64,000 bases of DNA from Candidatus Omnitrophota bacterium. GTDB lineage: Bacteria; Omnitrophota; Gorgyraeia; Duberdicusellales; 4484-171. Made by a program: the position numbers and the translations under genes. The notes beneath the pieces were generated by a model, which was not told the origin of the DNA, did no database searches, and saw only the letters and a program-made list of their open reading frames with translations. This document shows positions 3,034 through 31,933 of the stretch, in pieces; positions within the stretch are counted from its first letter, which is position 1; every line of letters starts with the position of its first letter. The DNA lies in the NCBI GenBank assembly GCA_014729775.1, contig WJJJ01000007.1, positions 30,302 to 94,301 on the forward strand, in the 5' to 3' direction.

Positions 3034-3052
3034 ACGGAAAGGAGAAACAGAG

Positions 3053-9476: not shown

Positions 9477-10364
9477 ATGAAGAAGATGAAAGTATCGGTA
9501 GTGATCCGCAACCGTAATGAGGCGAGGTATCTCGAGAAAATCTTATATGCACTTTCTTTGCAGCGTGTGCCCCCTGATGAAATCATCGTGGTTGATAATG
9601 CCTCCGAAGACAACAGTGCCGAAGTGGCCGCGCGCGCGCAGGCGAAGCTCGTTTCGATCGACACAAAAACGTTTACCTATGGCAGAGCGTTGAATAGGGG
9701 GATTCGGGAAGCGAGCGGCGAAATTTGTGTCGTGCTGAGCGCGCACACGCTGCCGGTGGGCAGGAATTTCATCGAAGAATGCCTAGTTCCGTTTGAAGAT
9801 GAACGCATTGCAGGGGTTCGCTGTGTTCACGGCGCCAAGCAGCGTGATCTGGAAGAATGGATTAGCCCGCAAGTGCTGCGTTCTCCCGTTGATCCTGAAA
9901 AAGTAATTGCGTACGGACCTGGATGCGGATACGCGATTCGCCGAAGCGTATGGCAGGAGATTCCGTTTGAGGAAGATCTGGAAATGATCGAGGACAAGGC
10001 CTGGGCTTGGGAAGTGCTGCGTAACGGGTATCATATCTATTCTGCGTGTCCCGCGGTGTACACTCATATTCGGCCGCGCCGAACCCTGGAAAAAATATGG
10101 CGAACGAATCAGGAAGGGCGGGCGGTATACCGGAGATTCGCCCGGCGGTTCCCGGTGCGATCCCCGATGCAAGCGATCGGGGGTATCGTTGCGGCCGTCT
10201 GCTGGCGGGCTCCCCGGGCGGCGGTGTCGGTACTCGTCACAACGATAGGGACACACATTTTTTCCTTGATGTTGCCGATTATAGCCAGGAAAAAAGCATC
10301 ACAGGGGTCGCGTCCGTTTTTCGAAGTGTCACGGAGCTGGAAGGGGAGCAAGAAGAATGAGTGA
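9477..10364 (+). CDS. Family 2 glycosyltransferase
   Basis: ATG at 9477 (the tracker began at TTG 9441). KVSVVIRNRNEARYLEKILYALSLQRVPPDEIIVVDNASEDNS is a canonical GT2 N-terminus. Confidence 0.8.
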   Translation: MKKMKVSVVIRNRNEARYLEKILYALSLQRVPPDEIIVVDNASEDNSAEVAARAQAKLVSIDTKTFTYGRALNRGIREASGEICVVLSAHTLPVGRNFIEECLVPFEDERIAGVRCVHGAKQRDLEEWISPQVLRSPVDPEKVIAYGPGCGYAIRRSVWQEIPFEEDLEMIEDKAWAWEVLRNGYHIYSACPAVYTHIRPRRTLEKIWRTNQEGRAVYRRFARRFPVRSPMQAIGGIVAAVCWRAPRAAVSVLVTTIGTHIFSLMLPIIARKKASQGSRPFFEVSRSWKGSKKNE

Positions 10365-11085
10365 CACGAAGTACCGGTGTGTCGCGATTATCCCGGCCAG
10401 AGGAGGATCGAAAGGGATCCCGCAGAAGAACCTTGTAAAATTACATCGCCGTCCGCTACTGGCCTACACGATCGAAGCCGCTCGACAGAGCGGTTTGTTC
10501 GAGAAGGTACTCGTGTCGACCGAGAATGAAAAAATCAGGCAAACGGCGCATCGCTACGGTGCGCAATCCATCTGTCGCCCGGCGAACCTTTCCGGCGACC
10601 GCGCCGCTACCGAGCCGGTGGTTCTCCATGCGCTGAACCGGCTGCGCAAAACCGAAAGATACCGGCCCGATGTCGTATTCCTTTTACAGGCGACGTCGCC
10701 GTTGCGGGACGAGGACGATATTCGCGCGGCGTATCGGCAGTTTTTGCGGCAGAAGGTCGATTCGCTCCTTTCCGTGGAAAAAAACACCGATTTCCTGTGG
10801 AAAGAGTCCCGCAGGGGACTGGCTCCGATCAATTATTCGTATTCTCGACGGCCTCGCCGACAGGATATGCCGGTGCAATTCAAGGAAAACGGGGCAATTT
10901 ACATCACGAAATACGAGATATGGATGCGGCACGGAAATCGGTTAGGCGGAAGGATCGGGTATTCGCTGATGGATCCGATGAACTCGATCGAGATCGATGT
11001 TCCGTTTGATGTCATTGTTGCCGCGGCAGCGGTGCGCCGCCGGGGAAAAATACGCAAGAAGAAAGGGGGGAGTCATGACAGATAA
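10357..11085 (+). CDS. neuA: Acylneuraminate (nonulosonate) cytidylyltransferase, CMP-sugar synthetase
   Basis: CVAIIPARGGSKGIPQKNLVKLHRRPLLAYTIEAARQS matches the CMP-NeuAc/CMP-Kdn synthetase family N-terminus. It overlaps the upstream GT2 by 8 nt. Confidence 0.85.
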   Translation: MSDTKYRCVAIIPARGGSKGIPQKNLVKLHRRPLLAYTIEAARQSGLFEKVLVSTENEKIRQTAHRYGAQSICRPANLSGDRAATEPVVLHALNRLRKTERYRPDVVFLLQATSPLRDEDDIRAAYRQFLRQKVDSLLSVEKNTDFLWKESRRGLAPINYSYSRRPRRQDMPVQFKENGAIYITKYEIWMRHGNRLGGRIGYSLMDPMNSIEIDVPFDVIVAAAAVRRRGKIRKKKGGSHDR

Positions 11086-11947
11086 AGTACAGATCGCAGA
11101 CCGATTGGTGGGGAACGGCGAATCTTGTTTTGTAGTAGCCGAGATCGGCATCAATCACAACGGAGATCTGGATGTCGCCCGGAAGCTTATCTCCGCGGCG
11201 AATCTGGCGGGATGTGATGCGGTGAAATTTCAGAAAAGAACTGTGGAAACGGTATATACCCAGGAAGAACTCGCCAAGCCGAGGGAAAATCCCTTTGGGC
11301 CGACCAACGGAGATTTGAAACGAGGGTTGGAGTTTGACCGGGAGGAGTATGCACAGATCGCCGAATATTGCAAGACAAACAATCTTGTATGGTATGCGTC
11401 TTGCTGGGACGAAGGGTCGGTTGATTTTATGGAACAATTTAATCCGCCGTGCTACAAAATAGCTTCTCCGTTGTTAACCGACGATAAATTGTTGCGGTAT
11501 CATCGGCGGTACAAACGGCCGGTGATTCTTTCTACCGGGATGAGCACAATGGATCAGATCGATCACGCTGTCGAGGTGCTGGGAACGGAAAGGCTGATTT
11601 TGCTGCATTGTACCAGCACGTATCCGGCGCAGGTAGGGGAGCTCAATCTTCGCATGATTCCGGTATTGAAACAACGGTACCGGGTGCCGGTGGGCTATTC
11701 CGGGCATGAGGTTGGACTTGCGACCAGTATCGCCGCCGTTGCGTTGGGTGCATGCATGGTAGAGAGGCATATCACGCTGGACCGGGCGATGTGGGGAAGC
11801 GATCAGGCGGCGTCGGTCGAGCCGCACGGCTTCAGCCGACTGGTGCGCGACGCGCATGTAGTTGAGCAGGCTATGGGAGACGGGCAGAAGAGGGTATACG
11901 AGAGCGAAGTCCCCATCATTAAGAAGCTGCGGCGCGTGGGGAAGTAG
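11075..11947 (+). CDS. neuB: N-acetylneuraminate synthase family protein (NeuB-like nonulosonate / 9-phosphate synthase), lacks C-terminal SAF domain
   Basis: The NeuB TIM-barrel signature CFVVAEIGINHNGDLDVARKLI...CDAVKFQK is present. The RBS is ggggggag before ATG 11075. At 290 aa it has no antifreeze-like SAF domain. Confidence 0.85.
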   Translation: MTDKVQIADRLVGNGESCFVVAEIGINHNGDLDVARKLISAANLAGCDAVKFQKRTVETVYTQEELAKPRENPFGPTNGDLKRGLEFDREEYAQIAEYCKTNNLVWYASCWDEGSVDFMEQFNPPCYKIASPLLTDDKLLRYHRRYKRPVILSTGMSTMDQIDHAVEVLGTERLILLHCTSTYPAQVGELNLRMIPVLKQRYRVPVGYSGHEVGLATSIAAVALGACMVERHITLDRAMWGSDQAASVEPHGFSRLVRDAHVVEQAMGDGQKRVYESEVPIIKKLRRVGK

Positions 11948-20359: not shown

Positions 20360-21408
20360 ATCAGCCGTTTGTATCGGTGGTGATGCCTTGTGCAAATGAA
20401 ATAGATTTTATTTCTAAGTCTCTCGGTTCGCTGTTGCGGACCGAGTATCCGATGCACCGGTTGGAAATATTAGTTGTGCTCGACAGCTACAGCGACGACG
20501 GGACAAGAGCCGTGGTAAAGCAGCTGCACGAAGTTCATTCGCAAATACGACTGGTTGAAAATCCGTATCGGATTGTTCCTGTTGCGATGAACATCGGGAT
20601 TCGTGCGGCAAAAGGAGAAATTATCGTGCGGGTCGATGCTCATACTGAGTATCCGCCGGAGTATATTTGTAAATGCGTGGAATATCTTGAGAAGACCGAT
20701 GCCTGGTGTGTGGGCGGGCCGTTTTATAACGTTCCCGCCACGAATACATTGATGGCCAAGGTGATCTCCGCGGTGCTCTCTTGTCCGTTCCTTGTCGCCG
20801 ACGCCCGGTTCCGGACGAAGCAGAAACCGATGTATGTGGAGACGGTTCCCTACGGCGCATTTCGTAGGGAAGTGTTTGATCGTGTAGGATTTTACGACGA
20901 GCGCCTGACCCGGCATCAGGATTTTGAATTATGCCGCAGGATTTCACGGGCCGGAGGTAAGATTTTTCTTACACCGGAAATAAAAAATTATTATTATCCC
21001 CGCAAGACCCTCCGCGCGTTTCTGCGTATGGCGGTCCAAAACGGGTATTGGGATGCGGTGAGCACCGGGTTGTGTCCCCACTCCTTTGCCTGGCGGCACT
21101 TTGTGCCCGGGCCGTTTTTTTTGGGAACGGTTGCGGGAATCGGATGTGTGGTGATTGGCGCAGCCACCGGGGACCCGGTGTGGTTCCTCGGCGCGGCACC
21201 GGTAGCTCTTTACTTCGGGTTGGCGTGCTTTTTTTCCGCTTCTCTTTGCAGAATGCATCGATTCGGCGTTGCGGCGTTTTCCCTGATCCCGTTCGTGTGT
21301 TTTCTCTTTCATTTTTGGTTTGGTTTCGGACTGATCAAAGGGCTGGCGCAGTGGCTTTGTATCCGATGGCCGCGGGAACGCAGTGAAAGGGGAACGAATA
21401 CAGATTGA
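20356..21408 (+). CDS. Family 2 glycosyltransferase with C-terminal transmembrane anchor (possibly polyprenyl-phosphate sugar transferase, GtrB/DPM1-like)
   Basis: GT2 N-terminus (FVSVVMPCANEIDFI...VVLDSYSDDGT...RVDAHTEYP) followed by 3-4 C-terminal TM helices. ATGA overlap. Confidence 0.75.
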   Translation: MNQPFVSVVMPCANEIDFISKSLGSLLRTEYPMHRLEILVVLDSYSDDGTRAVVKQLHEVHSQIRLVENPYRIVPVAMNIGIRAAKGEIIVRVDAHTEYPPEYICKCVEYLEKTDAWCVGGPFYNVPATNTLMAKVISAVLSCPFLVADARFRTKQKPMYVETVPYGAFRREVFDRVGFYDERLTRHQDFELCRRISRAGGKIFLTPEIKNYYYPRKTLRAFLRMAVQNGYWDAVSTGLCPHSFAWRHFVPGPFFLGTVAGIGCVVIGAATGDPVWFLGAAPVALYFGLACFFSASLCRMHRFGVAAFSLIPFVCFLFHFWFGFGLIKGLAQWLCIRWPRERSERGTNTD

Positions 21409-22031
21409 TGAGTGATGTGCAGAGAGAATATCGTCTCAAGCGACCGGTTGATTTTTTTCTGGGGGTCCTCGCAGTTTTTCTCTCTCTGCCCCTATGGGGG
21501 TTGTGTGCCTACGCGGTGCTGGCGGAGGACGGCCGCCCGGTATTTTACGGACAATATCGGATTGGGCGAGCCGGGCGAAGGTTTCGGGTATTTAAATTCC
21601 GGTCGATGATCAAAAATGCCGAAGCGCTGACCGGGCCTGTATTCGCTCAGGAGAATGATTCCCGGTTGACCAAGACCGGCCAGGTCATGCGGGCGACCGC
21701 GCTGGATGAACTTCCGCAAATATTGAGTATTCTCAAAGGAGATATGAGTTTTGTCGGACCTCGGCCGGAGCGTCCCGAATTCGTGGCGACGTTTGCGGCC
21801 GAAGTGAGAAATTATATGATGCGGCATGCCGTCCGTCCCGGGTTAACGGGAGTTGCTCAGATTTTCGGGCAATACGATACCCCACCGCGGCATAAACTCC
21901 GTTATGATCTGTTCTACATAAGGAGGCAGAGTTTACTGTTCGATTTGGTTCTCATTACTATTTCTTTGTATCTGAGCATATGCGGAAAATGGAGGTTTCG
22001 CCGGCGAAAGTTTCCTCGGCGGTATCGATAA
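21408..22031 (+). CDS. Polyprenyl-phosphate sugar phosphotransferase (small bacterial sugar transferase, PglC/WbaP-C-like)
   Basis: One N-terminal TM then FKFRSM...DELPQILSILKGDMSFVGPRPERPEFV, the Bac_transf signature of initiating phosphoglycosyltransferases. Confidence 0.85.
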   Translation: MSDVQREYRLKRPVDFFLGVLAVFLSLPLWGLCAYAVLAEDGRPVFYGQYRIGRAGRRFRVFKFRSMIKNAEALTGPVFAQENDSRLTKTGQVMRATALDELPQILSILKGDMSFVGPRPERPEFVATFAAEVRNYMMRHAVRPGLTGVAQIFGQYDTPPRHKLRYDLFYIRRQSLLFDLVLITISLYLSICGKWRFRRRKFPRRYR

Positions 22032-22088
22032 AAGGTGTTGCGTTGTTTCATCTCTCCCCGTAGAATAATATCGGGGGGAGAAAGGGTT

Positions 22089-23219
22089 ATGAAAGAAATG
22101 TCAATTGTCATCGTCGGTGCCGGTCCGATCGGGTGCTATGTGGGGCAGCTTTTGACCCGGCAGGGATACCGTGTCCGAATTATTGAGGAGCACAATGAGA
22201 TCGGGAAACCGGTGCATTGTGCGGGATTAATCGGGAAAAAGGTGCTGGATGAGATGCGAATCCCTTTCCCCAGGGAGAGCGTACTCAACCGTATTGACGG
22301 GGGGATTGTGCATCTCAATGGGGATTGTTTCCGTCTCCGGCGAGAAGAAGTTGCCTATGTGATCGACCGGGAAAAATTCGATAAAGCTATGGGGGCGGGA
22401 TTGAATGTGACCTATGGAACCCGGTGTGTCGGGATTGAGGAGAACGGAAGAGGGTATATTCTTGAAACTGACAGAGGAGAAATAAAAGCGGACGCGATCA
22501 TCGGTGCTGACGGCGCGCATTCTGCGGTCCGGGAATACGTGCATCAGAAAACCCCGGTCGAATATCTGAAAGGGGTACAGTTCCGGATGGAGCAGGCTCC
22601 TTCTGATATCAATATGGTGGAGATCTTTCTCAAAAAGCCTTATTTCTTCTGGAGCATCCCTGAAAATGAGAAAATCGTCCGGGTCGGGGTTCTTTCCCGG
22701 AATCCGTACTATGATCTTCTCGATTTTATCAAGGAAAGAGGTTTTCAGGGACGGGTGATCGAGAAATTCGCGGGACTTGTGCCCTTTTCGCATTTTTCCA
22801 CGTTTTCCAAAGGAAACGTATTTTTGGTGGGGGACAGCGCCGCACAAATAAAACCGTTGTCTTACGGCGGTGTCTATCTGGGGATGCGCGCTGCGGAACT
22901 TCTCGCGGATTGCCTGTGCAGTGAAAGGCATCAAGAATATTCTTCCCTGTGGAAGCGCCGTTTCGGCAGGGAACTCGCGATTACACTGAAGGCCCGCCGT
23001 TATTTTCATACGCTGAGCGAAGAAGATTTAGAACGAATATTTTTCTTCGTGAAAGATAATACTTCTCTTATAGAGGAAAAAGCCGATTTTGAAAATCACG
23101 CGGTGATGGTTTGGGAGTTCTTAAAACGGCCGAACGTATCAAAAGAAATATTGAGCATATTGCTGAAACTCGTGAAAAACAATTTTTTTCAGAATGAAGT
23201 CAATTACGCTACAAAGTAG
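22089..23219 (+). CDS. Geranylgeranyl reductase family FAD-dependent oxidoreductase
   Basis: MSIVIVGAGPIGCYVGQ...IIEEHNEIGKPVHCAGLIG is the GGR-type dinucleotide-binding fold with the PxCGG-like motif. ATG at 22089 (the tracker began upstream). Confidence 0.8.
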   Translation: MKEMSIVIVGAGPIGCYVGQLLTRQGYRVRIIEEHNEIGKPVHCAGLIGKKVLDEMRIPFPRESVLNRIDGGIVHLNGDCFRLRREEVAYVIDREKFDKAMGAGLNVTYGTRCVGIEENGRGYILETDRGEIKADAIIGADGAHSAVREYVHQKTPVEYLKGVQFRMEQAPSDINMVEIFLKKPYFFWSIPENEKIVRVGVLSRNPYYDLLDFIKERGFQGRVIEKFAGLVPFSHFSTFSKGNVFLVGDSAAQIKPLSYGGVYLGMRAAELLADCLCSERHQEYSSLWKRRFGRELAITLKARRYFHTLSEEDLERIFFFVKDNTSLIEEKADFENHAVMVWEFLKRPNVSKEILSILLKLVKNNFFQNEVNYATK

Positions 23220-24498
23220 AATTATTATTCTCTTTGTGATTTTTACCATTTTCACGATCGGCATTTTCGTCGTGATTCAGCTGTCGCATGAGTTGAATTC
23301 GGTTAACCAGGAGATTGAGTACCGGGCCCGCGCGAATTCAAATGAAGTAGAGGAGGAATTCCGGGAGATTCTTCTCCGGTTCCCGGACCGCGCGGAGGCG
23401 ATCGAAGTGATGGGTGAAAAACTCCAGGCGCTGAAAACCTCCGGGTTTCTCGAGCGTGCCTATGTGCTTGATTCTTCGGGTGAAATTGTATTCTCTACCG
23501 AGGGCTGGTTTGGAGGACAAAAGGGGAGTTTTACCGATTTTAATATACTGCAAAAATTTTTCGCGGAGGATTCGAGACGGAGAGAGGCTGTTACCGATAA
23601 AAAGAGCCGGTTACTCTCGGTGTATATCCCTCTTGACCAGGAAGATGAGTTGCGTTATTTGGTGCGGTTGTTTTTCCCTCTGGGCGATATTTGGACGGCG
23701 ATGCGGCAGGTCTATCAGCCGGCGTTTGCGGTCGGGCTGTTGTTTATCGTATTGAATGTATTGTTCGGGATATCTCTTTCCCGGGCGATTATCGGTCCGA
23801 TTAAGGTGGTAAGCGAGGCGGCAAAAAAAATCGCCGCGGGAAATCTTGATTTACGCGTACGAATGTCCACGAACGACGAGCTGGAGGAGTTGGCCAATAC
23901 GTTTAATGTGATGACAGTTGAATTAGACAAGATGAAACGACAAGCTGAGGATGCCAATCCTCTGACAAAACTTCCAGGGAACGTATTGATTCGCGAAGAG
24001 ATCGAGATGCGAATTCAAAACAAGGAAAAATTCGCGGTCGTATATTGCGACTTGGATAATTTCAAAGCGTTCAATGACAAATACGGAATCGGTAAAGGAG
24101 ATGAGGCAATCAAGCTTACCGGGGAGATTTTCAAACGGGCCGTAGAGCACAAAGGGGAATCAGATGATTTTATCGGACATGAAGGCGGGGACGATTTTTT
24201 ATTGGTATGCCGGCTTTCCCGGGTGGAAGAGGTGGCCAATTACATAATTGAAGAATTCGATGTGCGCATACGGGATTTATACGACAAAGAAGACAAAGCG
24301 CAGGGCTATATTATCGCAACGGGACGGGACGGGGTAAAGCGGCAGTTTTCCATTATGACCATTTCTCTGGCGGGAATTACGAACGGCCGCCGGGAGCTGC
24401 ACAGCTACGGTGAAATCACCAATATTGCGGCCGAAGTGAAAAAGAAAGCAAAAAACCAGGAGCGCAGCTGTTTGGTGTTTGACGAACGGACCGGGTAG
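23194..24498 (+). CDS. Membrane-bound HAMP-GGDEF domain protein (diguanylate-cyclase family; signature motif is GGDDF)
   Basis: Two TM segments flank a ~150-aa periplasmic region, then HAMP (IGPIKVVSEAAKKIAAGNLDLRV). The GGDEF domain has LTKLPGN, YCDLDNFKAFND, and GGDDF at 24184-24198 in place of GG(D/E)EF. Confidence 0.8.
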   Translation: MKSITLQSRIIILFVIFTIFTIGIFVVIQLSHELNSVNQEIEYRARANSNEVEEEFREILLRFPDRAEAIEVMGEKLQALKTSGFLERAYVLDSSGEIVFSTEGWFGGQKGSFTDFNILQKFFAEDSRRREAVTDKKSRLLSVYIPLDQEDELRYLVRLFFPLGDIWTAMRQVYQPAFAVGLLFIVLNVLFGISLSRAIIGPIKVVSEAAKKIAAGNLDLRVRMSTNDELEELANTFNVMTVELDKMKRQAEDANPLTKLPGNVLIREEIEMRIQNKEKFAVVYCDLDNFKAFNDKYGIGKGDEAIKLTGEIFKRAVEHKGESDDFIGHEGGDDFLLVCRLSRVEEVANYIIEEFDVRIRDLYDKEDKAQGYIIATGRDGVKRQFSIMTISLAGITNGRRELHSYGEITNIAAEVKKKAKNQERSCLVFDERTG

Positions 24499-24508
24499 TG
24501 TATTAGTA

Positions 24509-24835
24509 TTAGGAGAGGTTATCTAAGAGACTTTCCGTAAGATCTTTATACGGGTTCAAATACGGATGCGGCTCGTCTAATGCGAAATCCGGGATGTTTT
24601 CCTTTTCCTGGATACGAGGCGCGGGGTTGATAATGTTGGAAATAATTTGTTTCCATTTAGGGATGTCCGTCGGGGGCTGGGGATCGTTGCGGTCTGCATG
24701 GTAATCGGGCGAAGCGCTGTTGTCTTCGGGCCACTCCACCTGCGATGGTTCGGGTTGGGCGAGCGCCCAGAAACCACCGGTTCCCAATAACAGAACTACC
24801 GCACATATGAAAATCATATCTTTGTGTATGCTCAT
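24509..24835 (-). CDS. Small secreted hypothetical protein (108 aa, Pro/Asp-rich)
   Basis: This is the only convincing minus-strand gene. The Met at 24835 gives MSIHKDMIFICAVVLLLGTGGFWALA|QP, a typical Sec signal peptide. It lies in the 425-nt gap between convergent and divergent + strand genes. Confidence 0.4.
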   Translation of the reverse strand: MSIHKDMIFICAVVLLLGTGGFWALAQPEPSQVEWPEDNSASPDYHADRNDPQPPTDIPKWKQIISNIINPAPRIQEKENIPDFALDEPHPYLNPYKDLTESLLDNLS

Positions 24836-24922
24836 CTCAATTAAAGGATACCATACCCTGCCCCCCGATGTCAATAAAATCGCCGATGGCGAAAAACCAT
24901 TGAAAATAAAGGAGAATACGTT

Positions 24923-26761
24923 ATGATGCGCCGAGTTTTCCAGCGCTCCGTGCTTACTCTGATCGTGGTTGTGGTGACAATGGGGACGTTTCTTTTTATT
25001 TATAATACCTATATGTTGGATCATTCTCTCTTTAATCTGAAGGTTTCGCTCAAACATCTGGCTACCGTGGAAAATCCCAGGGAAATGGAGGAAATCCGGC
25101 AAATCCTGGACGTTGTATTGGTCCAGGAAATTGCCCGGGATTCGTCCGACTTTTTAGCGGCGGCAAAACTGGAATTTTCCGGTCAGATTGCGGGGCGGAT
25201 GAAGCAATATCAGCAGATTCAGGATATCCGGTTTCTCTTGGGGGATATCGTGGAACAACGGGAGGAGCGACGCAATCCTTTTTTTGCTCTGCTGGACAGC
25301 ATTTTGATGAAACTCTTCCCCCATGTGCGGCAGGACCAGCCGCAGAAGATACGCGCAATGATCAGCGAAATGGAAAAGAAAATTCCCCTTTACGACGGAA
25401 TTAAGCTGCAGGCGCATTTAATCCGTCTGGCACAGATGAATATGCGTCTTCGGGAGTGGCCTGTCGCATTGGAGTTGTTGCAGCGGGCGGCTTCAGCCGG
25501 GCCGGAAAGTAAGGAGGGCCGTATCGCGAAGCTATATGTGGGAATCGTATATAAATTTACCGGAGAGTATGAGCGTGCCCGGAAAGTATTCAGCGAGCTT
25601 CGTTCGGTGTTAGAGAAAGATCTGAAAAAATACGCAATATATCAGGAAGCCCAAATCTTGTATGCAGAAGGGCGAAAGGGACAGGCCTTGCAGAAGTTAG
25701 AAGAGTTCTTTGATGATTCGCCCGGAGAAGAATTCCATCAATTCTCGCAGTTCCGGGCGGCATACGAGTATCTATACACCATACACGACCACCAGAAGGC
25801 GTATCAGTCGTTTCAAAAACTGCATGAATATGCACCCCAAAGCAAGTATGACGAATATGCGGTTACCTATCTCTATCCCCGGAATGCGGAGCCGTATGTA
25901 GAAGAAGGAGCAATTTTGTTGGATGAAGGGTATAATCTGGTGCGGTTGGCACATGAAAAAGAGGCACGCGAACGATATCAGGGTGCATTGAACCTGTTCC
26001 ACCAGGCGGTAAAAATTTGTCCGCCGGAAACCAATGATACCGTGGTGTCGATTATCGCCCGCAATTATCGGGAAACCGGATTCAAACTGGTCGAACAAGG
26101 ATATTTGTCTCAACAGGCGAACCAGAAAGCGGAAGCGACGTTGTTTTTTTCCGATGCGATCGAGAAATTTGATCTTGCAACGCAATTCTTCGACCGCGAA
26201 GCGTTAGCATACAGCGGGAAAGGACTGACGTTATTGTTTCTCGGGAAGCCGCAGGAAGCGCTGGATGCCGCGCGGGAAGCCGTCCGTCTCAATCCCGAGA
26301 ATGAAGAAACACTGGCTCATTTGGGGTATGTGTATTATCGGGTGGGAATGCTTGACGAAGCGATCGATGTGTATCGAAAATCGATGTTGGTATTACGAGA
26401 TTCTCCGCTATTGCATTATAATCTGGGGACAATGTTGGTTAAAAAAGGCAACCTTGTGGGAGCGATCGAAAATTTCAAACAGGCGATTGATGCTGATCCG
26501 AAATATTCGTACGCATATAATAACCTAGGATACATTTTGTGGGTAAAGGGCGCCTATCAGGAGGCGCAGACAAATTTGGAGCGAGCCGTGAGTTTGAGCC
26601 CCGATTATGTGGATGCCAGGTATAATCTCGGAGTCTTGTTTTTTACCATCGGAAAGTACGAACAGGCCCAGGAGCAGTTCCAAGTGATCAACCGTTTGCA
26701 TCCGGGGTTCAAAAAAAGCCAACAGTTTCTGAGAGCGATTGAAAAGAGAGCTGCACAATAA
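24923..26761 (+). CDS. TPR-repeat protein with N-terminal membrane anchor
   Basis: RBS aaggag 7 nt before ATG. An N-terminal TM (LTLIVVVVTMGTFLFIY) is followed by multiple TPR-like repeats (YNLGTMLVKKGNLVGAIENFKQAIDADPKYSYAYNNLGYI...). Confidence 0.8.
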   Translation: MMRRVFQRSVLTLIVVVVTMGTFLFIYNTYMLDHSLFNLKVSLKHLATVENPREMEEIRQILDVVLVQEIARDSSDFLAAAKLEFSGQIAGRMKQYQQIQDIRFLLGDIVEQREERRNPFFALLDSILMKLFPHVRQDQPQKIRAMISEMEKKIPLYDGIKLQAHLIRLAQMNMRLREWPVALELLQRAASAGPESKEGRIAKLYVGIVYKFTGEYERARKVFSELRSVLEKDLKKYAIYQEAQILYAEGRKGQALQKLEEFFDDSPGEEFHQFSQFRAAYEYLYTIHDHQKAYQSFQKLHEYAPQSKYDEYAVTYLYPRNAEPYVEEGAILLDEGYNLVRLAHEKEARERYQGALNLFHQAVKICPPETNDTVVSIIARNYRETGFKLVEQGYLSQQANQKAEATLFFSDAIEKFDLATQFFDREALAYSGKGLTLLFLGKPQEALDAAREAVRLNPENEETLAHLGYVYYRVGMLDEAIDVYRKSMLVLRDSPLLHYNLGTMLVKKGNLVGAIENFKQAIDADPKYSYAYNNLGYILWVKGAYQEAQTNLERAVSLSPDYVDARYNLGVLFFTIGKYEQAQEQFQVINRLHPGFKKSQQFLRAIEKRAAQ

Positions 26762-26762
26762 A

Positions 26763-26791
26763 TTGACAGCAGCATGAAAATATACTAAACT
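26763..26791 (+). promoter_or_regulatory. Putative sigma70-type promoter (TTGACA-17-TAAACT) giving a near-leaderless PilZ mRNA
   Basis: TTGACA at 26763-26768 and TAAACT at 26786-26791 with a 17-nt spacer. The predicted TSS is ~3-4 nt before ATG 26802. Confidence 0.45.
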
Positions 26792-26801
26792 TATCGTTGA
26801 G

Positions 26802-27377
26802 ATGCTGAAATCATTCAAGAAACATTTCTTCCGCAAGAAAGGCCGTGACCGGAGAAAATATGTCCGGTTGCGTGCGCATCATTTGCTGAAGTATAAAATT
26901 CTTTCTCCCCAAGAACATCTGACCTTTGTCCGCGATATCAGCGGCGGCGGACTCCTCTTTTTCTCGAGAGAGGATATTCCTGTGGGGAGTGTAGTGGAAC
27001 TTGCCGTTAATTTTCCCGCATCTCCCTTGCCGATTGAAGGGGTAGCCAAGGTGATCCGGACCCGGCATCTTAAAAAGATGGGCGGCTACGAGATCGCAGT
27101 CGAATTTCTCGAGCTGGACGAAGAAAACCGGGAACGGATTCAACGGCAAATAGCGTGTGTATATGAAAAAAAAGAACAAAGAAAGGGGGAGCGAATGGGC
27201 AGAGTAGCGAAAATATTCCTGGGACTCGCGATTGTCGGCGCGCTTTTCGGGACGGCAACGCGATTCTTTGATGTGAGTGTCCCGGTTGCCCCGCTCAGTT
27301 GGGTTATGTTGACCAATATGTTTTTGCTGTTCTCTATCGCGGTCACTTTGTTGGCAATTGCTCGGAAGATCAAATAG
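26802..27377 (+). CDS. PilZ-domain c-di-GMP receptor with C-terminal two-TM anchor
   Basis: Canonical PilZ motifs RKYVRLR (RxxxR) and DISGGG (DxSxGG), followed by two hydrophobic helices at the C-terminus. Confidence 0.8.
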   Translation: MLKSFKKHFFRKKGRDRRKYVRLRAHHLLKYKILSPQEHLTFVRDISGGGLLFFSREDIPVGSVVELAVNFPASPLPIEGVAKVIRTRHLKKMGGYEIAVEFLELDEENRERIQRQIACVYEKKEQRKGERMGRVAKIFLGLAIVGALFGTATRFFDVSVPVAPLSWVMLTNMFLLFSIAVTLLAIARKIK

Positions 27378-27418
27378 GTTCTTTTGAGGATATACGGGGC
27401 AGACGGAATTTTATTCGT

Positions 27419-28747
27419 ATGGGCAGGTGGATTACCACAGGAATATGCATGGTTGCGTGTGCTGTCCTTCCCGCAGCGGGATGGGGGGAAGTGACGAGGG
27501 GAGACCTTATCGACGGATATCTTAAATATTATCAGCTGGAAGAAAAAGAACGGGAAGAAAAGGAACGGCAGGAAGAGCTCCGGCGGCAAAAGGAAGAGGC
27601 TTTGATGCGGGAGCGGGAAGCCCGGCGGGATAAAAGCGAGCAACGTGCGAGAAAAATGAAAAAAGTGCTTGAGAGAGTAAAAGAGGATCTTTTGTTTGTC
27701 GCGGAACTCGAGAGTATTTATAGCGATAACGTATTTAAAACCAGCGAAGACGAAGAATCAGATTTCGTCACTTCTCTCACCCTGGGATTGAGCTACGAAC
27801 CAGAAATTGCATGGAGGAAGGGGCATACTTCGGTAAAATTCGATCTGGAAGGCGGTCCGAACATCACCATTACGGATAATGACGAGCTGAACGCGAACCG
27901 GTTCCTTGCCGCCGGTGCGGTCCAGCATGTCCGGGGGAAATACGGTGTCGGTATTGAAGGAGGCGCGGAACGGGATTTCTCTACGGCGAGCGATTTTACC
28001 CTTACGGGAGAAAAAAAGCTCGTGGAATTCTGGCGGTATCGGTACGGAGTGGAGCTGTTCGCCGACTGGGCATATCTCCCTTCCTCGCTTCAGTACACGC
28101 ACAAAACAACCGAACACGACGGAGAGTTTTCTGCGGCGGATTTAGACGAGGACGTCATTGAATTGACGACGAAAGTGAACGTTTTCCCCAAGACCGGAAT
28201 TAAATTTGACTATCAATATGGTTCTGACGAATATCCGAACCGCGGAAATAAAGACGGTACGTATCATTCGTTTCAACTCGGGCTGTCCGGAAAGATTTCG
28301 CCGAAGATCAAAGGGGATATCCTTGGAGGCATCAAGCAGAGAGAAATCGATGACGGCAGCGATGTCGAAGAAACTACGACGACGGTGGACCTTGTGTATG
28401 ATATCTCCGAACATCTGAGCGCCGCCTTCGAAGCAAGCCGGGATGTCTCCGCGACGGCGGTCATCGGAGAATCTTGGAGCAAAGACTGGGAGATCATTCT
28501 GGGGCTGGAATACCGGCCGCCGTTCAACCGAAGGTTAACCATGTTCGCCGGAGGGGAATATAAGAGTTCAGAGTATTCTTCCGCCCGGGAAGACGAATAT
28601 CTTGAGCTGTCTTTGCGGTCACGGCTCGCGTTGAATCAATGGCTTTCCTGTGAAGGTGCATATACGTTCGAAGACAGGACCTCGAACACTGCCCTGGCCG
28701 AATACACGCAAAACGAAATTACGCTGTCACTCACCGCGGAGTTTTAA
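27419..28747 (+). CDS. Putative outer-membrane beta-barrel protein with N-terminal charged coiled-coil region
   Basis: Signal peptide (MGRWITTGICMVACAVLPAAG), a K/E/R-rich low-complexity stretch, then alternating amphipathic beta-strand pattern. The C-terminus ...ITLSLTAEF ends in Phe, the OMP signature. Confidence 0.6.
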   Translation: MGRWITTGICMVACAVLPAAGWGEVTRGDLIDGYLKYYQLEEKEREEKERQEELRRQKEEALMREREARRDKSEQRARKMKKVLERVKEDLLFVAELESIYSDNVFKTSEDEESDFVTSLTLGLSYEPEIAWRKGHTSVKFDLEGGPNITITDNDELNANRFLAAGAVQHVRGKYGVGIEGGAERDFSTASDFTLTGEKKLVEFWRYRYGVELFADWAYLPSSLQYTHKTTEHDGEFSAADLDEDVIELTTKVNVFPKTGIKFDYQYGSDEYPNRGNKDGTYHSFQLGLSGKISPKIKGDILGGIKQREIDDGSDVEETTTTVDLVYDISEHLSAAFEASRDVSATAVIGESWSKDWEIILGLEYRPPFNRRLTMFAGGEYKSSEYSSAREDEYLELSLRSRLALNQWLSCEGAYTFEDRTSNTALAEYTQNEITLSLTAEF

Positions 28748-30088
28748 ATGAAGATGCGAACAAAAATCATAGGTGTGCTTCTCGTTTGCTTCCCGCTGGC
28801 TGTTTCCGCACAACAGGAGGAGGAGAACATTGCCGCAGGGGATATTCTCCATATTACCGTATACGGGGAGCCGGGGCTTGATCAAAAGGTCCAGGTGTCT
28901 GGTACGGGGGATGTCGAATTCGTTCCTCTCGGACAGGTTCCCGTGGCCGGGCTCTCTCCGGTCGGGGCGGGAGAGAAAATCGAACGGGAACTGAAAAATG
29001 AGTTTTATTTGGATGCGGAAGTAAGCGTGATCCGGAACCGGTCCGCCGGGGAGTCGACGCAGGAGCCTCTTCCTTATTTTTCCGGTGAGGATTCCGGAAT
29101 TCCCTCTGCGGAAGACGATTTGTTTTACCGGGTTGGTCCGTACGATACAATTGAGATATCCGTTTACGGAGAGCCGGATTTAAGTAAAACCGTCAAAGTT
29201 TCCGAGGTAGGAAATATCCGTTTTCCGCTGCTGGGAGACGTGCAAGTCGAAGGACTGACTGCTGAAGAAATCGCCAGAAAAATTGAAGAATTGCTTGAGG
29301 ACGAATATTTAGTGAATCCACAGGTGAGTGTGATGATCGAGGAATACGGAAAAGTCTATGTGTTCGGCGCGGTGAATCAGCCGGGGGAATACGAGTTAAA
29401 AGGGCCTCTTACGCTCGTTGATATCCTCGTGCTAGCCGGCGGGGCCCAAGAAAACGCCAATCTTTCAAAAGTAAAAGTGGTGCGAAGGACCGGAGGCGAC
29501 CGGGGGTACGTGGTGGACGTAGACGATGTGGGCAACCGTTTCTACCTGAAACCCTTAGATAAGGTGATTGTGGAAGAATACGGGGAGATATATATCGTTG
29601 GCGCCGTCGAGAATCCTGGAGCTTATAATCTCGAAACGAGCGACTTGACGCCGTTGGATGCAATCATATTTCTGGCCGGAGGAGCTGCGGAAAATGCGAA
29701 CCTTACCGCGGTGACCGTGATCCGGTCGGCCGAAGATGGGAAAGAAGAGATCGTCGTTGACACTTCCCGGCCCGATCAGGAGTTTTATCTTCAGGAAGGC
29801 GACCGGGTGGTGGTAACGCTGTACGAGGATGTTTCGGTGTTTGGTGAAGTGCGGGAACCGGGTAATTACCCGTACAAAAAGGGGATAACGGTGATTGATG
29901 CCATTAGCCAGGCTGGCGGATTTACCGAGGTCGCGAGTAAAAACGGCGTACGAGTTATTCGGCAGCAGGGAGGGGAAAAGAAAATTATCAAAGTGCCTGT
30001 CGGATATATTTTAAAAACCGGAGATAAAGAGAGAGACATAGAGCTCCAGGAGGGCGATGCGGTAGTCGTCCCGGAATCGTGGTTTTGA
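28748..30088 (+). CDS. wza: Polysaccharide export protein (Wza/GumB/EpsA-like; Poly_export + SLBB domains)
   Basis: Signal peptide and repeated SLBB motifs (VYVFGAVNQPGEYELKGPLTLVDILVLAGG; IYIVGAVENPGAYNL...LDAIIFLAGG). Confidence 0.85.
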   Translation: MKMRTKIIGVLLVCFPLAVSAQQEEENIAAGDILHITVYGEPGLDQKVQVSGTGDVEFVPLGQVPVAGLSPVGAGEKIERELKNEFYLDAEVSVIRNRSAGESTQEPLPYFSGEDSGIPSAEDDLFYRVGPYDTIEISVYGEPDLSKTVKVSEVGNIRFPLLGDVQVEGLTAEEIARKIEELLEDEYLVNPQVSVMIEEYGKVYVFGAVNQPGEYELKGPLTLVDILVLAGGAQENANLSKVKVVRRTGGDRGYVVDVDDVGNRFYLKPLDKVIVEEYGEIYIVGAVENPGAYNLETSDLTPLDAIIFLAGGAAENANLTAVTVIRSAEDGKEEIVVDTSRPDQEFYLQEGDRVVVTLYEDVSVFGEVREPGNYPYKKGITVIDAISQAGGFTEVASKNGVRVIRQQGGEKKIIKVPVGYILKTGDKERDIELQEGDAVVVPESWF

Positions 30089-30094
30089 GGAACG

Positions 30095-31933
30095 ATGATA
30101 CCTTCACCGGAAGTTAAAGAACTGACGCTCAAGGATTACGTCGACATATTGCTGCGGCGGGTGTGGATACTTATGCTTTTTTTGGTCGTTATCCCCTCGA
30201 TCGTCGCAATCCGCGATCTGCGCATGGAGAAAGTGTATGAAGTAGAGACGAAGATCCTGTTAAAAAGCGAGATGCCGCAGATTTCCGGTAAAGAAGGGTT
30301 ATTATACCGTCAGGGAATGCCTGCGAAAGAGGACCAGGTTAATCTGCTTCAATCCCGGGCGCTTGCCGAGCGAGTGATCAAAACCTTGAATTTATCAAGC
30401 GAAGAAGAGTTTTCCGGAGCTTCCGATCCGGCGAGGTCTTTGCTTGAGAGGGTGACCGTAGAACAGGAGGACCAGCGCCGAAGCAATGTGGTATGGCTGC
30501 GGGTGGAGGGGAGTGATCCTCTGAAAATTACTAATATCGCCAATACCTGGGCCCAAGAGTTCATCGAACTGGATGTCGAACAAAGGATTTCTACGGCAAA
30601 ATACGGGGTAGCTTGGCTGAAGGAGCAGCTCGACCAAACACTCCAGAATCTTCAGGCGGCCGAAAAGAATCTCAATGCGTTTATTAAGAAAAACAAGATC
30701 GTGGCCATCCCTGACGTGGGAGAGCAGAAAGAGACTTTGATCGAACGGTTGAAAGAGCAAAAAGTTGATCTCGAAAAAGAATTGTTCGAGATGTCGAAAA
30801 AATATAAACTGAATCATCCCGATATGCTCGCCCTTCGTTCTCAGCTGGAGGCCGTCGAGAAATCTTTGGCAAAAGAAAAAAAGGCGGTGTTCGAATTGCA
30901 GGAGAAATCGCTCGAATACAGGATCCTTAAGCGGAATGTCGCTGCGCATAAATCGTTGTATGACGATTTTCTAAGGCGCATCAATGAACTTGAAGTGACC
31001 AAAGAGATGGTCAATTCGAACATCATGGTCGTTGAAGAAGCGCATATCCCTTCGGTTCCGATCAGGCCCCGGTTTGCCAGCGACATGGTCAAGGCGATTC
31101 TCATAAGTTTGGCGCTTGGCGCCGGGCTGTGCTATTTTCTCGAATACACCGATACTTCGCTCAAGACTTCGGAAGACGTCGAATTCTACACCCGGCTGCC
31201 ATTTCTCGGCTATGTACCTTCGGCAAAAAAAGGAGGGAAACGGGGAGATCCCAGTGTGCTCATCTCTTCTGCCGAGCCGTATTCTCAGGTGGCCGAAGCA
31301 TTAAGGAATCTGCGCGTATCTTTGATTTTTTCCTTTCCGGAGGATCATCCTTTGCGGTCGGTCATGGTGACGAGTGCCGTTCCCCGAGAAGGGAAAAGCT
31401 TTATCGCCGCCAATCTTGCGGTGATTTTTGCTCAGGCGAACGAAGAAACACTCTTGATCGAGACCGACATGCGCAAGGGGAAGCTTTCAAAGATATTTGA
31501 GATTGACGCAAAACACGGGCTCAGCAGTGTGTTAGCCGGACTTTGCCCCCTTGAAGATGCGGTGTCGCCTACTTCCATTCCCCATCTTTCCGTGATGCTT
31601 GCCGGGCCGTACACTCCGAATCCCGCGGAATTGTTGAGCTCGCATAAACTTGTCGAAATTATGGAAGAAGCAAAAAAGAAATATAAGCGAATCGTAGTGG
31701 ACGCGCCGCCGGTATTGGGGGTTGCCGATACGGTATTGGTCGGCGATAAATGCGACGGTGTTGTGTTCGTGGTGAAAACCGCCAGTACTTCCCTGAAGCT
31801 TGTAGAAGAGGCAAAAAAAATGATCACCGATAAAATGAAGGTGATCGGGGCGACATTGAATAATGTCGAAATGGAACGCGACCGGTATTACTACTACCAC
31901 TACTATTCTTATGCACCCGAGAAAAAAGGTTGA
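30095..31933 (+). CDS. wzc: Polysaccharide co-polymerase / BY-kinase (Wzc/EpsB-like tyrosine autokinase)
   Basis: N-terminal TM plus periplasmic coiled-coil (Wzz/GNVR-like), a second TM, a cytoplasmic P-loop ATPase (VTSAVPREGKSFIAANLA; VVDAPPVLGVADT), and the terminal Tyr cluster RDRYYYYHYYSY. Confidence 0.9.
   Translation: MIPSPEVKELTLKDYVDILLRRVWILMLFLVVIPSIVAIRDLRMEKVYEVETKILLKSEMPQISGKEGLLYRQGMPAKEDQVNLLQSRALAERVIKTLNLSSEEEFSGASDPARSLLERVTVEQEDQRRSNVVWLRVEGSDPLKITNIANTWAQEFIELDVEQRISTAKYGVAWLKEQLDQTLQNLQAAEKNLNAFIKKNKIVAIPDVGEQKETLIERLKEQKVDLEKELFEMSKKYKLNHPDMLALRSQLEAVEKSLAKEKKAVFELQEKSLEYRILKRNVAAHKSLYDDFLRRINELEVTKEMVNSNIMVVEEAHIPSVPIRPRFASDMVKAILISLALGAGLCYFLEYTDTSLKTSEDVEFYTRLPFLGYVPSAKKGGKRGDPSVLISSAEPYSQVAEALRNLRVSLIFSFPEDHPLRSVMVTSAVPREGKSFIAANLAVIFAQANEETLLIETDMRKGKLSKIFEIDAKHGLSSVLAGLCPLEDAVSPTSIPHLSVMLAGPYTPNPAELLSSHKLVEIMEEAKKKYKRIVVDAPPVLGVADTVLVGDKCDGVVFVVKTASTSLKLVEEAKKMITDKMKVIGATLNNVEMERDRYYYYHYYSYAPEKKG

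Follow-up and report, generated by a model that had tools for sequence, protein, structure and literature searches.

Older reviews of cyclic di-GMP (c-di-GMP) signaling name the fourth residue of the GGDEF motif of diguanylate cyclases as a metal ligand. Metal coordination has since been assigned to the third residue, and the fourth, a Glu whose change to Gln abolishes the activity of GacA, is the proposed general base that deprotonates the 3'-OH of GTP on the opposite monomer (PMC6456294). The canonical active site is defined as [G/A/S]G[D/E]E[F/Y] (PMC8835794), and two arginines accompany it: that of the LPNR(R) motif (R300 in PleD, R537 in Idiomarina), which occurs in 94% of cyclases and makes a stacking contact with the guanine at the opposite site (PMC6456294), and PleD R366, which is among the substrate contacts listed for the GTP-alpha-S complex (PMC7186502). 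A Ser or Thr at the position of PleD D344 (GacA S348) is the mark of the Hypr enzymes, which synthesize cyclic GMP-AMP (cGAMP). Here, we analyzed a gene for a 434-aa membrane protein with HAMP and GGDEF domains in a 64,000-nucleotide stretch of DNA from a Candidatus Omnitrophota bacterium (contig WJJJ01000007.1, positions 30,302 to 94,301), hereafter the window. Its motif reads GGDDF, with an Asp at position 4 against the canonical rule, and an earlier, sequence-only reading of the stretch had taken this substitution to mean an inactive domain, or else one weakly active or altered in specificity.

Two GGDDF proteins have been described with signs of cyclase activity in vivo. PA3258 of Pseudomonas aeruginosa is cytoplasmic and carries its GGDDF domain behind an active EAL phosphodiesterase and a pair of CBS domains (EAL-CBS-CBS-GGDDF); the untagged protein behaves as a phosphodiesterase, and once the EAL domain is inactivated the phenotypes have been read as residual cyclase activity (PMC12900916). 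Its homolog in P. fluorescens, RapA, has c-di-GMP degradation as its net role, and Bordetella DdpB has been grouped with the RapA type. GSU1937 of Geobacter sulfurreducens joins transmembrane (TM) and HAMP segments to a GGDDF domain with the Hypr Ser. Its deletion lowers the output of a cGAMP reporter, and one fusion of its GGDDF domain gave both cGAMP and c-di-GMP biosensor signals in Escherichia coli, which were lost in a GADDF mutant (PMC8835794).

Comparison of the window protein with these systems and with its relatives across the bacteria indicates, from sequence conservation, that GGDDF consistently marks a large and ancient branch of the GGDEF domains, spread over many phyla, and is not evidence of a dead enzyme. 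A verdict of inactivity is not warranted, and the evidence leans to the opposite. On the reading that we favor, the protein is a nucleotide cyclase, most likely a diguanylate cyclase, of a distinct conserved GGDEF subfamily, and, with odds only a little better than even (about 55%), we read it as a signal-regulated c-di-GMP synthase that feeds the adjacent PilZ protein and thereby controls exopolysaccharide export.

The GGDDF motif and its conservation

Nucleotides 24184-24198 of the window (+ strand, ggc ggg gac gat ttt) encode G331, G332, D333, D334, and F335, in frame with the open reading frame (ORF) of the 434-aa protein (Table 1). The product is 100% identical to an NCBI entry, [quoted passage not shown], which stems from a metagenome-assembled genome. 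Pfam GGDEF (PF00990) matches aa 256-345 with an E-value of 2.9e-14 (53.6 bits; gathering cutoff, 23.8), a match that spans profile positions 5-94 of 161 only, and TIGR00254 matches at 47.8 bits (cutoff 37.4). In phmmer alignments to solved cyclases, GHEGGDDF falls on GRxGGEEF and RYGGDEF, and in a profile-profile alignment (hhalign) with PleD, whose GGDEF-domain reference sequence was checked to be identical to PDB entries 1w25, 2v0n, and 2wb4, D333-D334 fall on E370-E371. GGDDF is not a chance match, because it occupies the motif column in a domain hit that is itself significant. The motif, the register, and the membrane HAMP-GGDEF architecture described in the sequence-only reading are thus all confirmed.

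The motif is equally constant among orthologs: all of the 120 best full-length homologs (46-62% identity) carry GHEGGDDF, and 117 carry LTKLPGN, together with DLDNFKAFN-type motifs. In an alignment of 88 sequences the invariant positions are NPLT.LPGN, Y284, D286, L287, D288, F290, K291, N294, D295, G298, G302, D303, GHEGGDDF, R378, S391, N397, Y405, K416, K420, and S425. At the DNA level, GAT and GAC share the two Asp positions about equally in 90 distinct copies of the locus, and neither GAA nor GAG occurs there. Since the codon drifts while the Asp stays fixed, the residue is held by selection.

This constancy extends over several phyla. The GHEGGDDF and NPLTKLPGN peptides, searched in one genome from each GTDB species, matched more than 600 stretches, 568 of which were confirmed, in Omnitrophota, Fibrobacterota (Chitinivibrionales, Chitinispirillaceae), Spirochaetia, and Sericytochromatia/Tanganyikabacteria. 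A multi-phylum alignment of 18 domain sequences (41-63% identity) keeps NPLT..PGN, D..FK..ND..G...GD, GH.GGDDF, F112, D124, R135, K173, K177, and S182 invariant. A subfamily profile built from 18 sequences, the window domain among them, gives that domain 296 bits and PleD 24.5 bits. The profile search returned at least 7035 proteins at E<=1e-10, including receiver-domain proteins of ~310 aa from Clostridia, and 112 of 114 new sequences from it read GHxGGDDF. An exhaustive phmmer search against 1.84 billion representatives of 50%-identity clusters yielded 24,055 matches at E<=1e-3, 2,948 at 1e-10, and 732 at 1e-30. GGDDF is present in at least 141 of 146 diverse representatives at this clustering level: the 146 new top representatives comprise 135 with GHxGGDDF, three with [A/I]HIGGDDF, three with GGDDY, one with GGEDF, and four that do not match a GG motif (AHESGDNF, GHIVGDDF, AHVAGDDF, and P0267, which has no motif). 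The three proteins with broken motifs (P0256, P0287, and P0368) keep the rest of the domain and look truly degenerate. The resulting signature is NPLTxLPGN...D[LIV]DxFKxxND...GHxGGDDF...K..AK....S; all of its motifs are found in the window protein, which is a member of this LPGN/GHxGGDDF subfamily.

Most members are joined to ordinary signal inputs. Among 101 representatives examined with Pfam, 40 have a receiver (REC) domain, 27 a HAMP domain, and 21 an EAL domain, which CBS accompanies in 12; PAS, GAF, HD-GYP-type, and kinase domains each occur among a few others or in addition. Several members have complex architectures (P0265, P0272, P0286, P0292, P0300, P0308, P0316, and P0365), and several of ~640-1020 aa contain two GGDEF-type stretches, possibly GGDDF and canonical GGDEF in tandem. 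By eye, the 842-aa P0279 combines a receiver, a GGDDF domain with Asn at the specificity position, and histidine-kinase-like and HD-GYP-like regions. One Omnitrophota contig bears two tandem subfamily genes (L043:3384-4046 and L043:4521-5237, + strand).

No structure of a subfamily member was found in the PDB, where the best matches were canonical domains at no more than 48 bits over profile positions 13-117 of 193. Literature searches returned nothing that pairs LPGN with GGDEF and nothing relevant that pairs Omnitrophota with c-di-GMP, and the joint exchange of three canonical catalytic residues throughout the subfamily, described below, was absent from the literature searched.

Active-site residues kept and replaced

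The residues that bind metal and guanine in canonical cyclases are retained. The metal Asp (D286) and the carboxylate at the third motif position (D333) are both invariant across the family alignments, and guanine recognition, provided by Asn335 and Asp344 in PleD, is represented by N294 and D303. At the specificity position, 124 of 139 scored representatives have GD and eight have GS. With N294 and D303 canonical, the substrate by the Hypr rule should be GTP, and on these residues the window protein should be GTP-specific, unlike GSU1937, which has Ser at the position of D303 and so can use ATP in addition to GTP and form cGAMP. A Hypr cGAMP synthase is ruled out for the window protein, since D303 is not Ser and the Ser-type branch is a different clade. 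Toward the C-terminus, K420 (PleD K442) is invariant, with the register set by eye and anchored on the end of the model helix 405-420 and on the strand 426-429; in the same register the PleD R446 equivalent is R424 here and mostly Gly, Lys, or Val in relatives.

Three catalytic positions are exchanged, and they are exchanged together throughout the subfamily: PleD R300 for N263, R366 for H329, and E371 for D334. N263 aligns with the cross-dimer Arg in the alignments to solved cyclases, so that LPGN, which the sequence-only reading had listed among the intact motifs, in fact lacks the Arg of canonical LPNR(R). H329 is invariant across the phyla of the subfamily, and no canonical Arg is found there. 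As for D334, the sequence-only reading was right that the Glu it replaces is essential in canonical enzymes. It called this Glu the metal-coordinating residue, as the older reviews do; another study gives that role to the third position, with the fourth as general base (PMC6456294). In addition, the subfamily has invariant residues without canonical counterparts, namely R378, K416, F355/D356, and D367; K416 is invariant in the 88- and 18-sequence alignments and nearly invariant in the A5 alignment. Neither Pfam nor PDB sequences align with the C-terminal half of the domain, which has diverged too far.

Degenerate GGDEF domains such as those of PelD and PopA serve as c-di-GMP receptors by binding the nucleotide at the inhibitory site (I-site). 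In the window protein, ESDD stands in place of the RxxD of this site, and only two of 232 family proteins have the Arg, which argues against a role as c-di-GMP receptor. An I-site receptor is ruled out by this replacement and by catalytic and binding residues that are conserved, not decayed.

Relatives in cultured bacteria

A tblastn search of the window domain against a plasmid collection found relatives in cultured bacteria that cover ~90% of the domain. The three examined, P. aeruginosa WP_003091594.1 (32% identity over 90% of the domain, E 1e-24), a protein of Sinorhizobium meliloti pSymB, and an ORF of Acetoanaerobium noterae, are all EAL-CBS-GGDEF proteins by Pfam, share the motifs (A/Q/S)NPLT(L/G)LPGN and GH(I/V)GGDDF, and match the subfamily profile over nearly its full length, at 151, 134, and 184 bits, respectively; the P. 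aeruginosa match spans profile positions 7-184. The species, the architecture, and an adjoining gene for a Prc-type (C-terminal processing) peptidase fit the identification of WP_003091594.1 as PA3258. With ANPLTLLPGN, GHIGGDDF, a divergent C-terminal half, and no I-site Arg, PA3258 belongs to the same subfamily as the window protein, which differs from it in being membrane-bound and free of an EAL domain. The P. aeruginosa record that contains the PA3258-like and Prc-type peptidase genes is labeled as a 96-kb plasmid (L089; NZ_CP137508.1, "plasmid pHPA0698-2"). Several "plasmid" records of Acetoanaerobium, Shinella, and Sinorhizobium, at 2.6-4.6 Mb, look like chromosomes or chromids, so these labels are not evidence of mobility.

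GSU1937 resembles the window protein in layout, with a TM-HAMP input, GGDDF, and no EAL or HD-GYP partner, and differs in that no exopolysaccharide or PilZ locus is reported for it. A Ser at the specificity position together with LPGN and GHIGGDDF was found in eight of the 146 representatives and in 87 of 113 relatives of one of these, mostly TM-HAMP proteins. This clade (DASPLTRLPGN, GHIGGDDF) has named members in Geoalkalibacter and Desulfuromonas; a G. sulfurreducens protein was sought among its relatives and none so named was found. Judging by its match to this Ser-type TM-HAMP-GGDDF clade, GSU1937 very probably belongs to the subfamily.

Predicted structure

An AlphaFold2 (AF2) model from the 88-sequence alignment has a mean predicted local distance difference test (pLDDT) score of 84.6, rising to ~90 for aa 270-430, and shows a complete GGDEF fold (aa ~256-430) whose strands and helices follow the canonical order. 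Foldseek aligned the C-terminal domain with isolated active GGDEF domains at TM-scores of 0.6-0.74. The window protein shares with PleD, WspR, and YfiN (TpbB, DgcN) the fold (TM-score ~0.7), the metal Asp, the guanine readers, Lys332, and probably Lys442, and with YfiN/TpbB/DgcN also the TM-sensor-HAMP-GGDEF layout. It differs from canonical cyclases in the three replacements above, in lacking RxxD, and in the position of R446, which its family does not conserve. In the model, the second membrane helix continues into the HAMP domain and then a coiled coil. The sensor domain (aa ~31-176) matched no family in the Pfam scan; NCBIfam models gave weak WalK and DgcN/YfiN N-terminal similarity for this region, and the best Foldseek match of the whole model was a WalK sensor kinase model (9a5d_A), in which the sensor part was matched.

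Proposed function

We propose that the state of the extracytoplasmic alpha/beta sensor would pass through the HAMP domain and the coiled coil and set the mutual orientation of the two GGDDF domains of a dimer. Each domain would bind one GTP, with the guanine read by N294 and D303, the metal held by D286 and D333, and the phosphates held by K291, K420, and K416. D334 would act as a stand-in for the canonical Glu, offering the carboxylate that activates the 3'-OH, and H329 and N263 may substitute for the two canonical arginines, which would make this a co-evolved variant active site. The reader of the c-di-GMP formed would be the small membrane PilZ protein, whose gene lies two places downstream, and this protein would switch the Wza/Wzc-type polymerization and export machinery for the exopolysaccharide of the cluster.

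The genomic position of the PilZ gene is consistent with this proposal. The PilZ protein has both motifs of a c-di-GMP receptor, R18xxxR22 and D45xSxxG50, and among four orthologs the RxxxR arginines are kept in all and [D/N]xSxxG in three. A same-strand PilZ gene follows in 13 of the 14 loci that share >=49% identity and extend 4.5 kb or more downstream; duplicate assemblies of the same organism account for some of these loci. Of 44 loci of more distant members, five have such a gene. The close orthologs (~50-56% identity) share the gene order sugar transferase, reductase, GGDDF, TPR, PilZ, barrel, Wza, and Wzc; distant members (L086-L088) have generic signaling neighborhoods with no link to exopolysaccharide genes or PilZ. 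The sequence-only reading had placed the GGDDF gene directly upstream of the PilZ and export genes. These are indeed on the same strand and farther downstream, after a gap of ~425 bp with a small opposite-strand ORF and the gene for a 612-aa TPR protein.

PilZ-controlled exopolysaccharide machines include those of alginate, with Alg44, and cellulose, with BcsA. The window locus is like them in having a c-di-GMP receptor domain within a polysaccharide locus together with a dedicated cyclase-type gene. It differs in that its PilZ is a separate 191-aa protein and not a domain of a synthase or co-polymerase, and in that the cluster is of the Wzx/Wzy-Wza-Wzc type and PEP-CTERM-like.

We favor a cyclase because the catalytic residues are under selection, the GGDEF fold is predicted complete and with confidence, the input domains are of the kind found on enzymes, no receptor I-site is present, a PilZ gene is syntenic, and two published GGDDF proteins show in vivo signs of cyclase activity. 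It is these observations that leave the step from GGDDF to inactivity unsupported: the motif is invariant in a deep, multi-phylum subfamily that keeps the metal Asp, the guanine readers, and probably Lys442; ~80% of the sampled members have no EAL domain and are joined to REC or HAMP inputs; and the in vivo data indicate cyclase activity for both GSU1937 (PMC8835794) and PA3258 (PMC12900916).

Alternative explanations

Several points weigh against cyclase activity. PleD R300, R366, and E371, nearly universal in active cyclases, are all replaced, and the R446 equivalent is not conserved. A GTP sensor without catalytic activity would likewise be expected to conserve the binding residues, and the PilZ protein indicates only that c-di-GMP is read at the locus, not which protein makes it. 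The published activities also have their limits. For PA3258, no cyclase phenotype emerged from the P. aeruginosa screen of 2006 (cited in PMC8835794 and PMC12900916); its "apparent DGC activity" (DGC, diguanylate cyclase) of 2026 is an indirect phenotype in a heterologous host (PMC12900916); and full-length GSU1937 and three of the four fusion constructs were inactive in E. coli (PMC8835794). The place of GSU1937 in the subfamily is, moreover, one that we infer, and the assayed GGDDF proteins include no HAMP-type member with Asp at the specificity position.

Much of this would be explained if the domain were a silent module that binds GTP or a cyclic dinucleotide without cyclization and works as a sensor-controlled scaffold or switch for export partners, comparable to the GTP-sensing GEDEF domain of Caulobacter crescentus CC3396 (PdeA), which regulates its EAL domain. 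Such a module would not need the fourth-position Glu that tested enzymes require (the E-to-Q change in GacA is lethal to activity; PMC6456294) or the two arginines, and the screen result for PA3258 would be expected of it. The domain also stands beside an EAL in 21 of the 101 representatives, as in RapA and PA3258, which are mainly phosphodiesterases. We nevertheless regard a silent module as unlikely, since ~80% of sampled members have neither an EAL domain nor any other catalytic partner that they could regulate, and since D333 and D334 are both near-invariant, which a protein that only binds would not require. There is no I-site for binding c-di-GMP, sensor-HAMP-coiled-coil inputs are the standard control of a dimeric catalytic output, and PA3258 with a dead EAL shows cyclase-like phenotypes, as the GGDDF domain of GSU1937 shows activity.

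A second alternative, which we also consider improbable, is an active enzyme with altered chemistry, in which the N263/H329/D334 set, along with the variable R446 position, reshapes the dimeric active site to give another metal or pH dependence, a stop at linear pppGpG, or a product other than 3',3'-c-di-GMP. The residues replaced are the cross-dimer general base and guanine-stacking Arg (PMC6456294) and a substrate-contact Arg of PleD (PMC7186502), and they co-vary across the subfamily, which has its own invariant R378, K416, F355/D356, and D367 and a C-terminal half beyond the reach of Pfam and PDB sequence alignment. The Ser-type branch shows that nucleotide choice has changed within the subfamily, and there is a faint match to the Cas10 cyclases, which have a homologous palm fold with GGDD at the equivalent hairpin. 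Against this, the window protein has the canonical guanine readers N294 and D303, the adjoining receptor is an ordinary PilZ with c-di-GMP-binding motifs, and the signals of the GSU1937 fusion on c-di-GMP and cGAMP biosensors are those of known products. The Cas10 palm match (PF22335) falls short of its threshold (17.4 bits; cutoff, 27), and there was no Cas10 among the 50 best Foldseek PDB matches of the model, so that a Cas10-like GGDD cyclase is ruled out; the locus also differs from Cas10 systems in having no CRISPR context. A related and speculative idea, to which we give a little more weight while still thinking it doubtful, is that the LPGN/GHxGGDDF domains form a mechanistically distinct GGDEF class, in which the general-base Glu, the guanine-stacking Arg, and the substrate Arg have been exchanged for Asp, Asn, and His and R378 and K416 recruited.

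Finally, an assembly error or decaying gene can be dismissed almost entirely: a single transversion would turn GAT into GAA or GAG, as the sequence-only reading had pointed out, and the source is a metagenome-assembled genome, but the same residue recurs across the homologs, the 90 locus copies have only GAT or GAC, and the ORF is intact, full length, and confidently modeled.

Genomic context

The coordinates of the protein features and of the neighboring genes are collected in Table 1.

Table 1. Features of the GGDDF protein and of the surrounding glycan gene cluster (window coordinates)
Feature	Position	Strand	Basis or remark
TM-sensor-HAMP-GGDDF protein gene, 434 aa	23194..24498	+	ORF, Pfam HAMP and GGDEF, AF2 model
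Transmembrane helix 1, ~aa 10-30	23221..23283	+	Hydrophobic run IIILFVIFTIFTIGIFVVIQL within model helix 6-62; limits by eye
Extracytoplasmic alpha/beta sensor domain, ~aa 31-176	23284..23721	+	Model: helices and five-strand sheet
Transmembrane helix 2, ~aa 177-196	23722..23781	+	Hydrophobic run AFAVGLLFIVLNVLFGISLS within model helix 166-214; limits by eye
HAMP domain, aa 195-244	23776..23925	+	Pfam PF00672, E 1.3e-13
Complete GGDEF-fold domain, LPGN/GHxGGDDF subfamily, ~aa 253-430	23950..24483	+	Model, Foldseek, subfamily profile
NPLTKLPGN, aa 255-263 (canonical DxLTGLPNR(R))	23956..23982	+	Invariant in 88- and 18-sequence alignments
DLDNFKAFND, aa 286-295	24049..24078	+	hhalign: D286=PleD D327 (metal), K291=K332, N294=N335 (guanine)
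D303, guanine-specifying Asp (PleD D344)	24100..24102	+	hhalign
ESDD, aa 322-325, at the RxxD inhibitory-site position	24157..24168	+	hhalign: E322=R359, D325=D362; no Arg
GHEGGDDF, aa 328-335	24175..24198	+	H329 on PleD R366; D333 on E370 (metal); D334 on E371 (proposed general base)
R378, in beta-hairpin after helix 3	24325..24327	+	Invariant in 88- and 18-sequence alignments, nearly so in A5 alignment
K416-K420 (KKKAK)	24439..24453	+	K420=PleD K442 (phosphate contact); register by eye from model
Bifunctional ATP sulfurylase/APS kinase	3026-4771	+	
Protein with C-terminal sulfotransferase domain	7678-9444	+	
CMP-sugar-type cytidylyltransferase and NeuB	10357-11947	+	
Priming polyprenyl-phosphate sugar transferase (Bac_transf)	21405..22031	+	Pfam E 3.2e-56; syntenic in relatives
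Geranylgeranyl-reductase-family FAD protein	22035..23219	+	TIGR02032, 170 bits (cutoff 158.8)
Small ORF, ~108 aa from Met at 24835, N-terminal hydrophobic segment	24509..24835	-	ORF list
612-aa TPR protein	24923..26761	+	Pfam TPR families; syntenic
PilZ protein, two C-terminal hydrophobic helices	26802..27377	+	Pfam PilZ E 8.6e-13
Outer-membrane beta-barrel (BBP2_2 / EpsL-like)	27299..28747	+	PF10082 E 2.2e-13; weak TIGR03014/03016
Wza-like polysaccharide export protein	28748..30088	+	Two Poly_export and three SLBB stretches (Pfam); TIGR03027, 206 bits (cutoff 180)
Wzc-like chain-length determinant / tyrosine autokinase	30095..31933	+	Pfam Wzz, GNVR, AAA_31; TIGR01007, 158.6 bits (cutoff 108)

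The GGDDF gene lies inside a ~33-kb glycan cluster on the + strand (window 1180-34202), which also encodes an ABC exporter, a GDP-mannose 4,6-dehydratase, an epimerase, at least seven glycosyltransferases, a methyltransferase, and two Wzy-type proteins. Together with the sulfation, cytidylyltransferase, and NeuB genes, this content suggests a sulfated exopolysaccharide with nonulosonic acid and deoxyhexose. Several of the genes match XrtA/PEP-CTERM-associated models, and no exosortase was seen in the cluster. Apart from the GGDDF and PilZ genes, no c-di-GMP gene (EAL and HD-GYP included) was found by regular expressions and Pfam on the 30 large ORFs at ~1.2-43.6 kb, or by regular expressions alone in the ORFs beyond.

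Immediately upstream, the reductase gene overlaps the start of the GGDDF gene by 26 nt. A homolog of this reductase is present within the fetched flanks of 21 of 85 related loci, directly upstream of the GGDDF gene in the colinear ones, and it could saturate the polyprenyl lipid carrier. Downstream, the position of the small opposite-strand ORF is kept in three related loci (L001:11306-11548, L002:11316-11540, and L004:11500-11709), with products of 69-80 aa at 23-32% identity. Two of these loci (L001 and L004) have an extra + strand ORF of 134-138 aa before the TPR gene, which was not found in the window. As listed, the barrel ORF begins within the PilZ gene, so its true start probably lies beyond 27299. 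The Wza-like exporter is longer than its 281-aa version in L002, and its gene is absent from the otherwise syntenic L004. The Wzc-like kinase gene is followed by that of a Wzy_C protein. A scan of 21300-27500 for promoters and terminators gave counts equal to the shuffled expectation and is uninformative on operon structure. A second group of Omnitrophota paralogs (~45% identity; for example, L026, L033, L060, and L084) lies near TPR, reductase, and Wza/Wzc genes in divergent orientation.

Implications

The logic of the locus is otherwise ordinary, with a sensor cyclase and a PilZ receptor that would control polysaccharide export. What the window protein adds to the known and under-studied GGDDF-type domains (PA3258/RapA and probably GSU1937) is a member in a conserved exopolysaccharide-export locus of Omnitrophota. 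Annotation and censuses of c-di-GMP proteins usually grade GGDEF domains as active or degenerate by the five-residue motif, and GGDDF proteins are thereby dismissed. The subfamily described here is instead selectively maintained, has its own co-varying active-site residues, and is mostly joined to ordinary signal inputs. If its members are cyclases, the capacity of several poorly known phyla, Omnitrophota included, to make c-di-GMP is underestimated, and the accepted need for a Glu at the fourth position would require qualifying. If they were in addition a distinct class, they may differ from canonical enzymes in the geometry of the catalytic dimer, in metal or pH dependence, or in product, and the ~730 clusters of "degenerate GGDDF" genes would be a hidden pool of active second-messenger synthases in Omnitrophota, Fibrobacterota, Spirochaetota, Clostridia, Desulfuromonadia, Sericytochromatia, and Proteobacteria.

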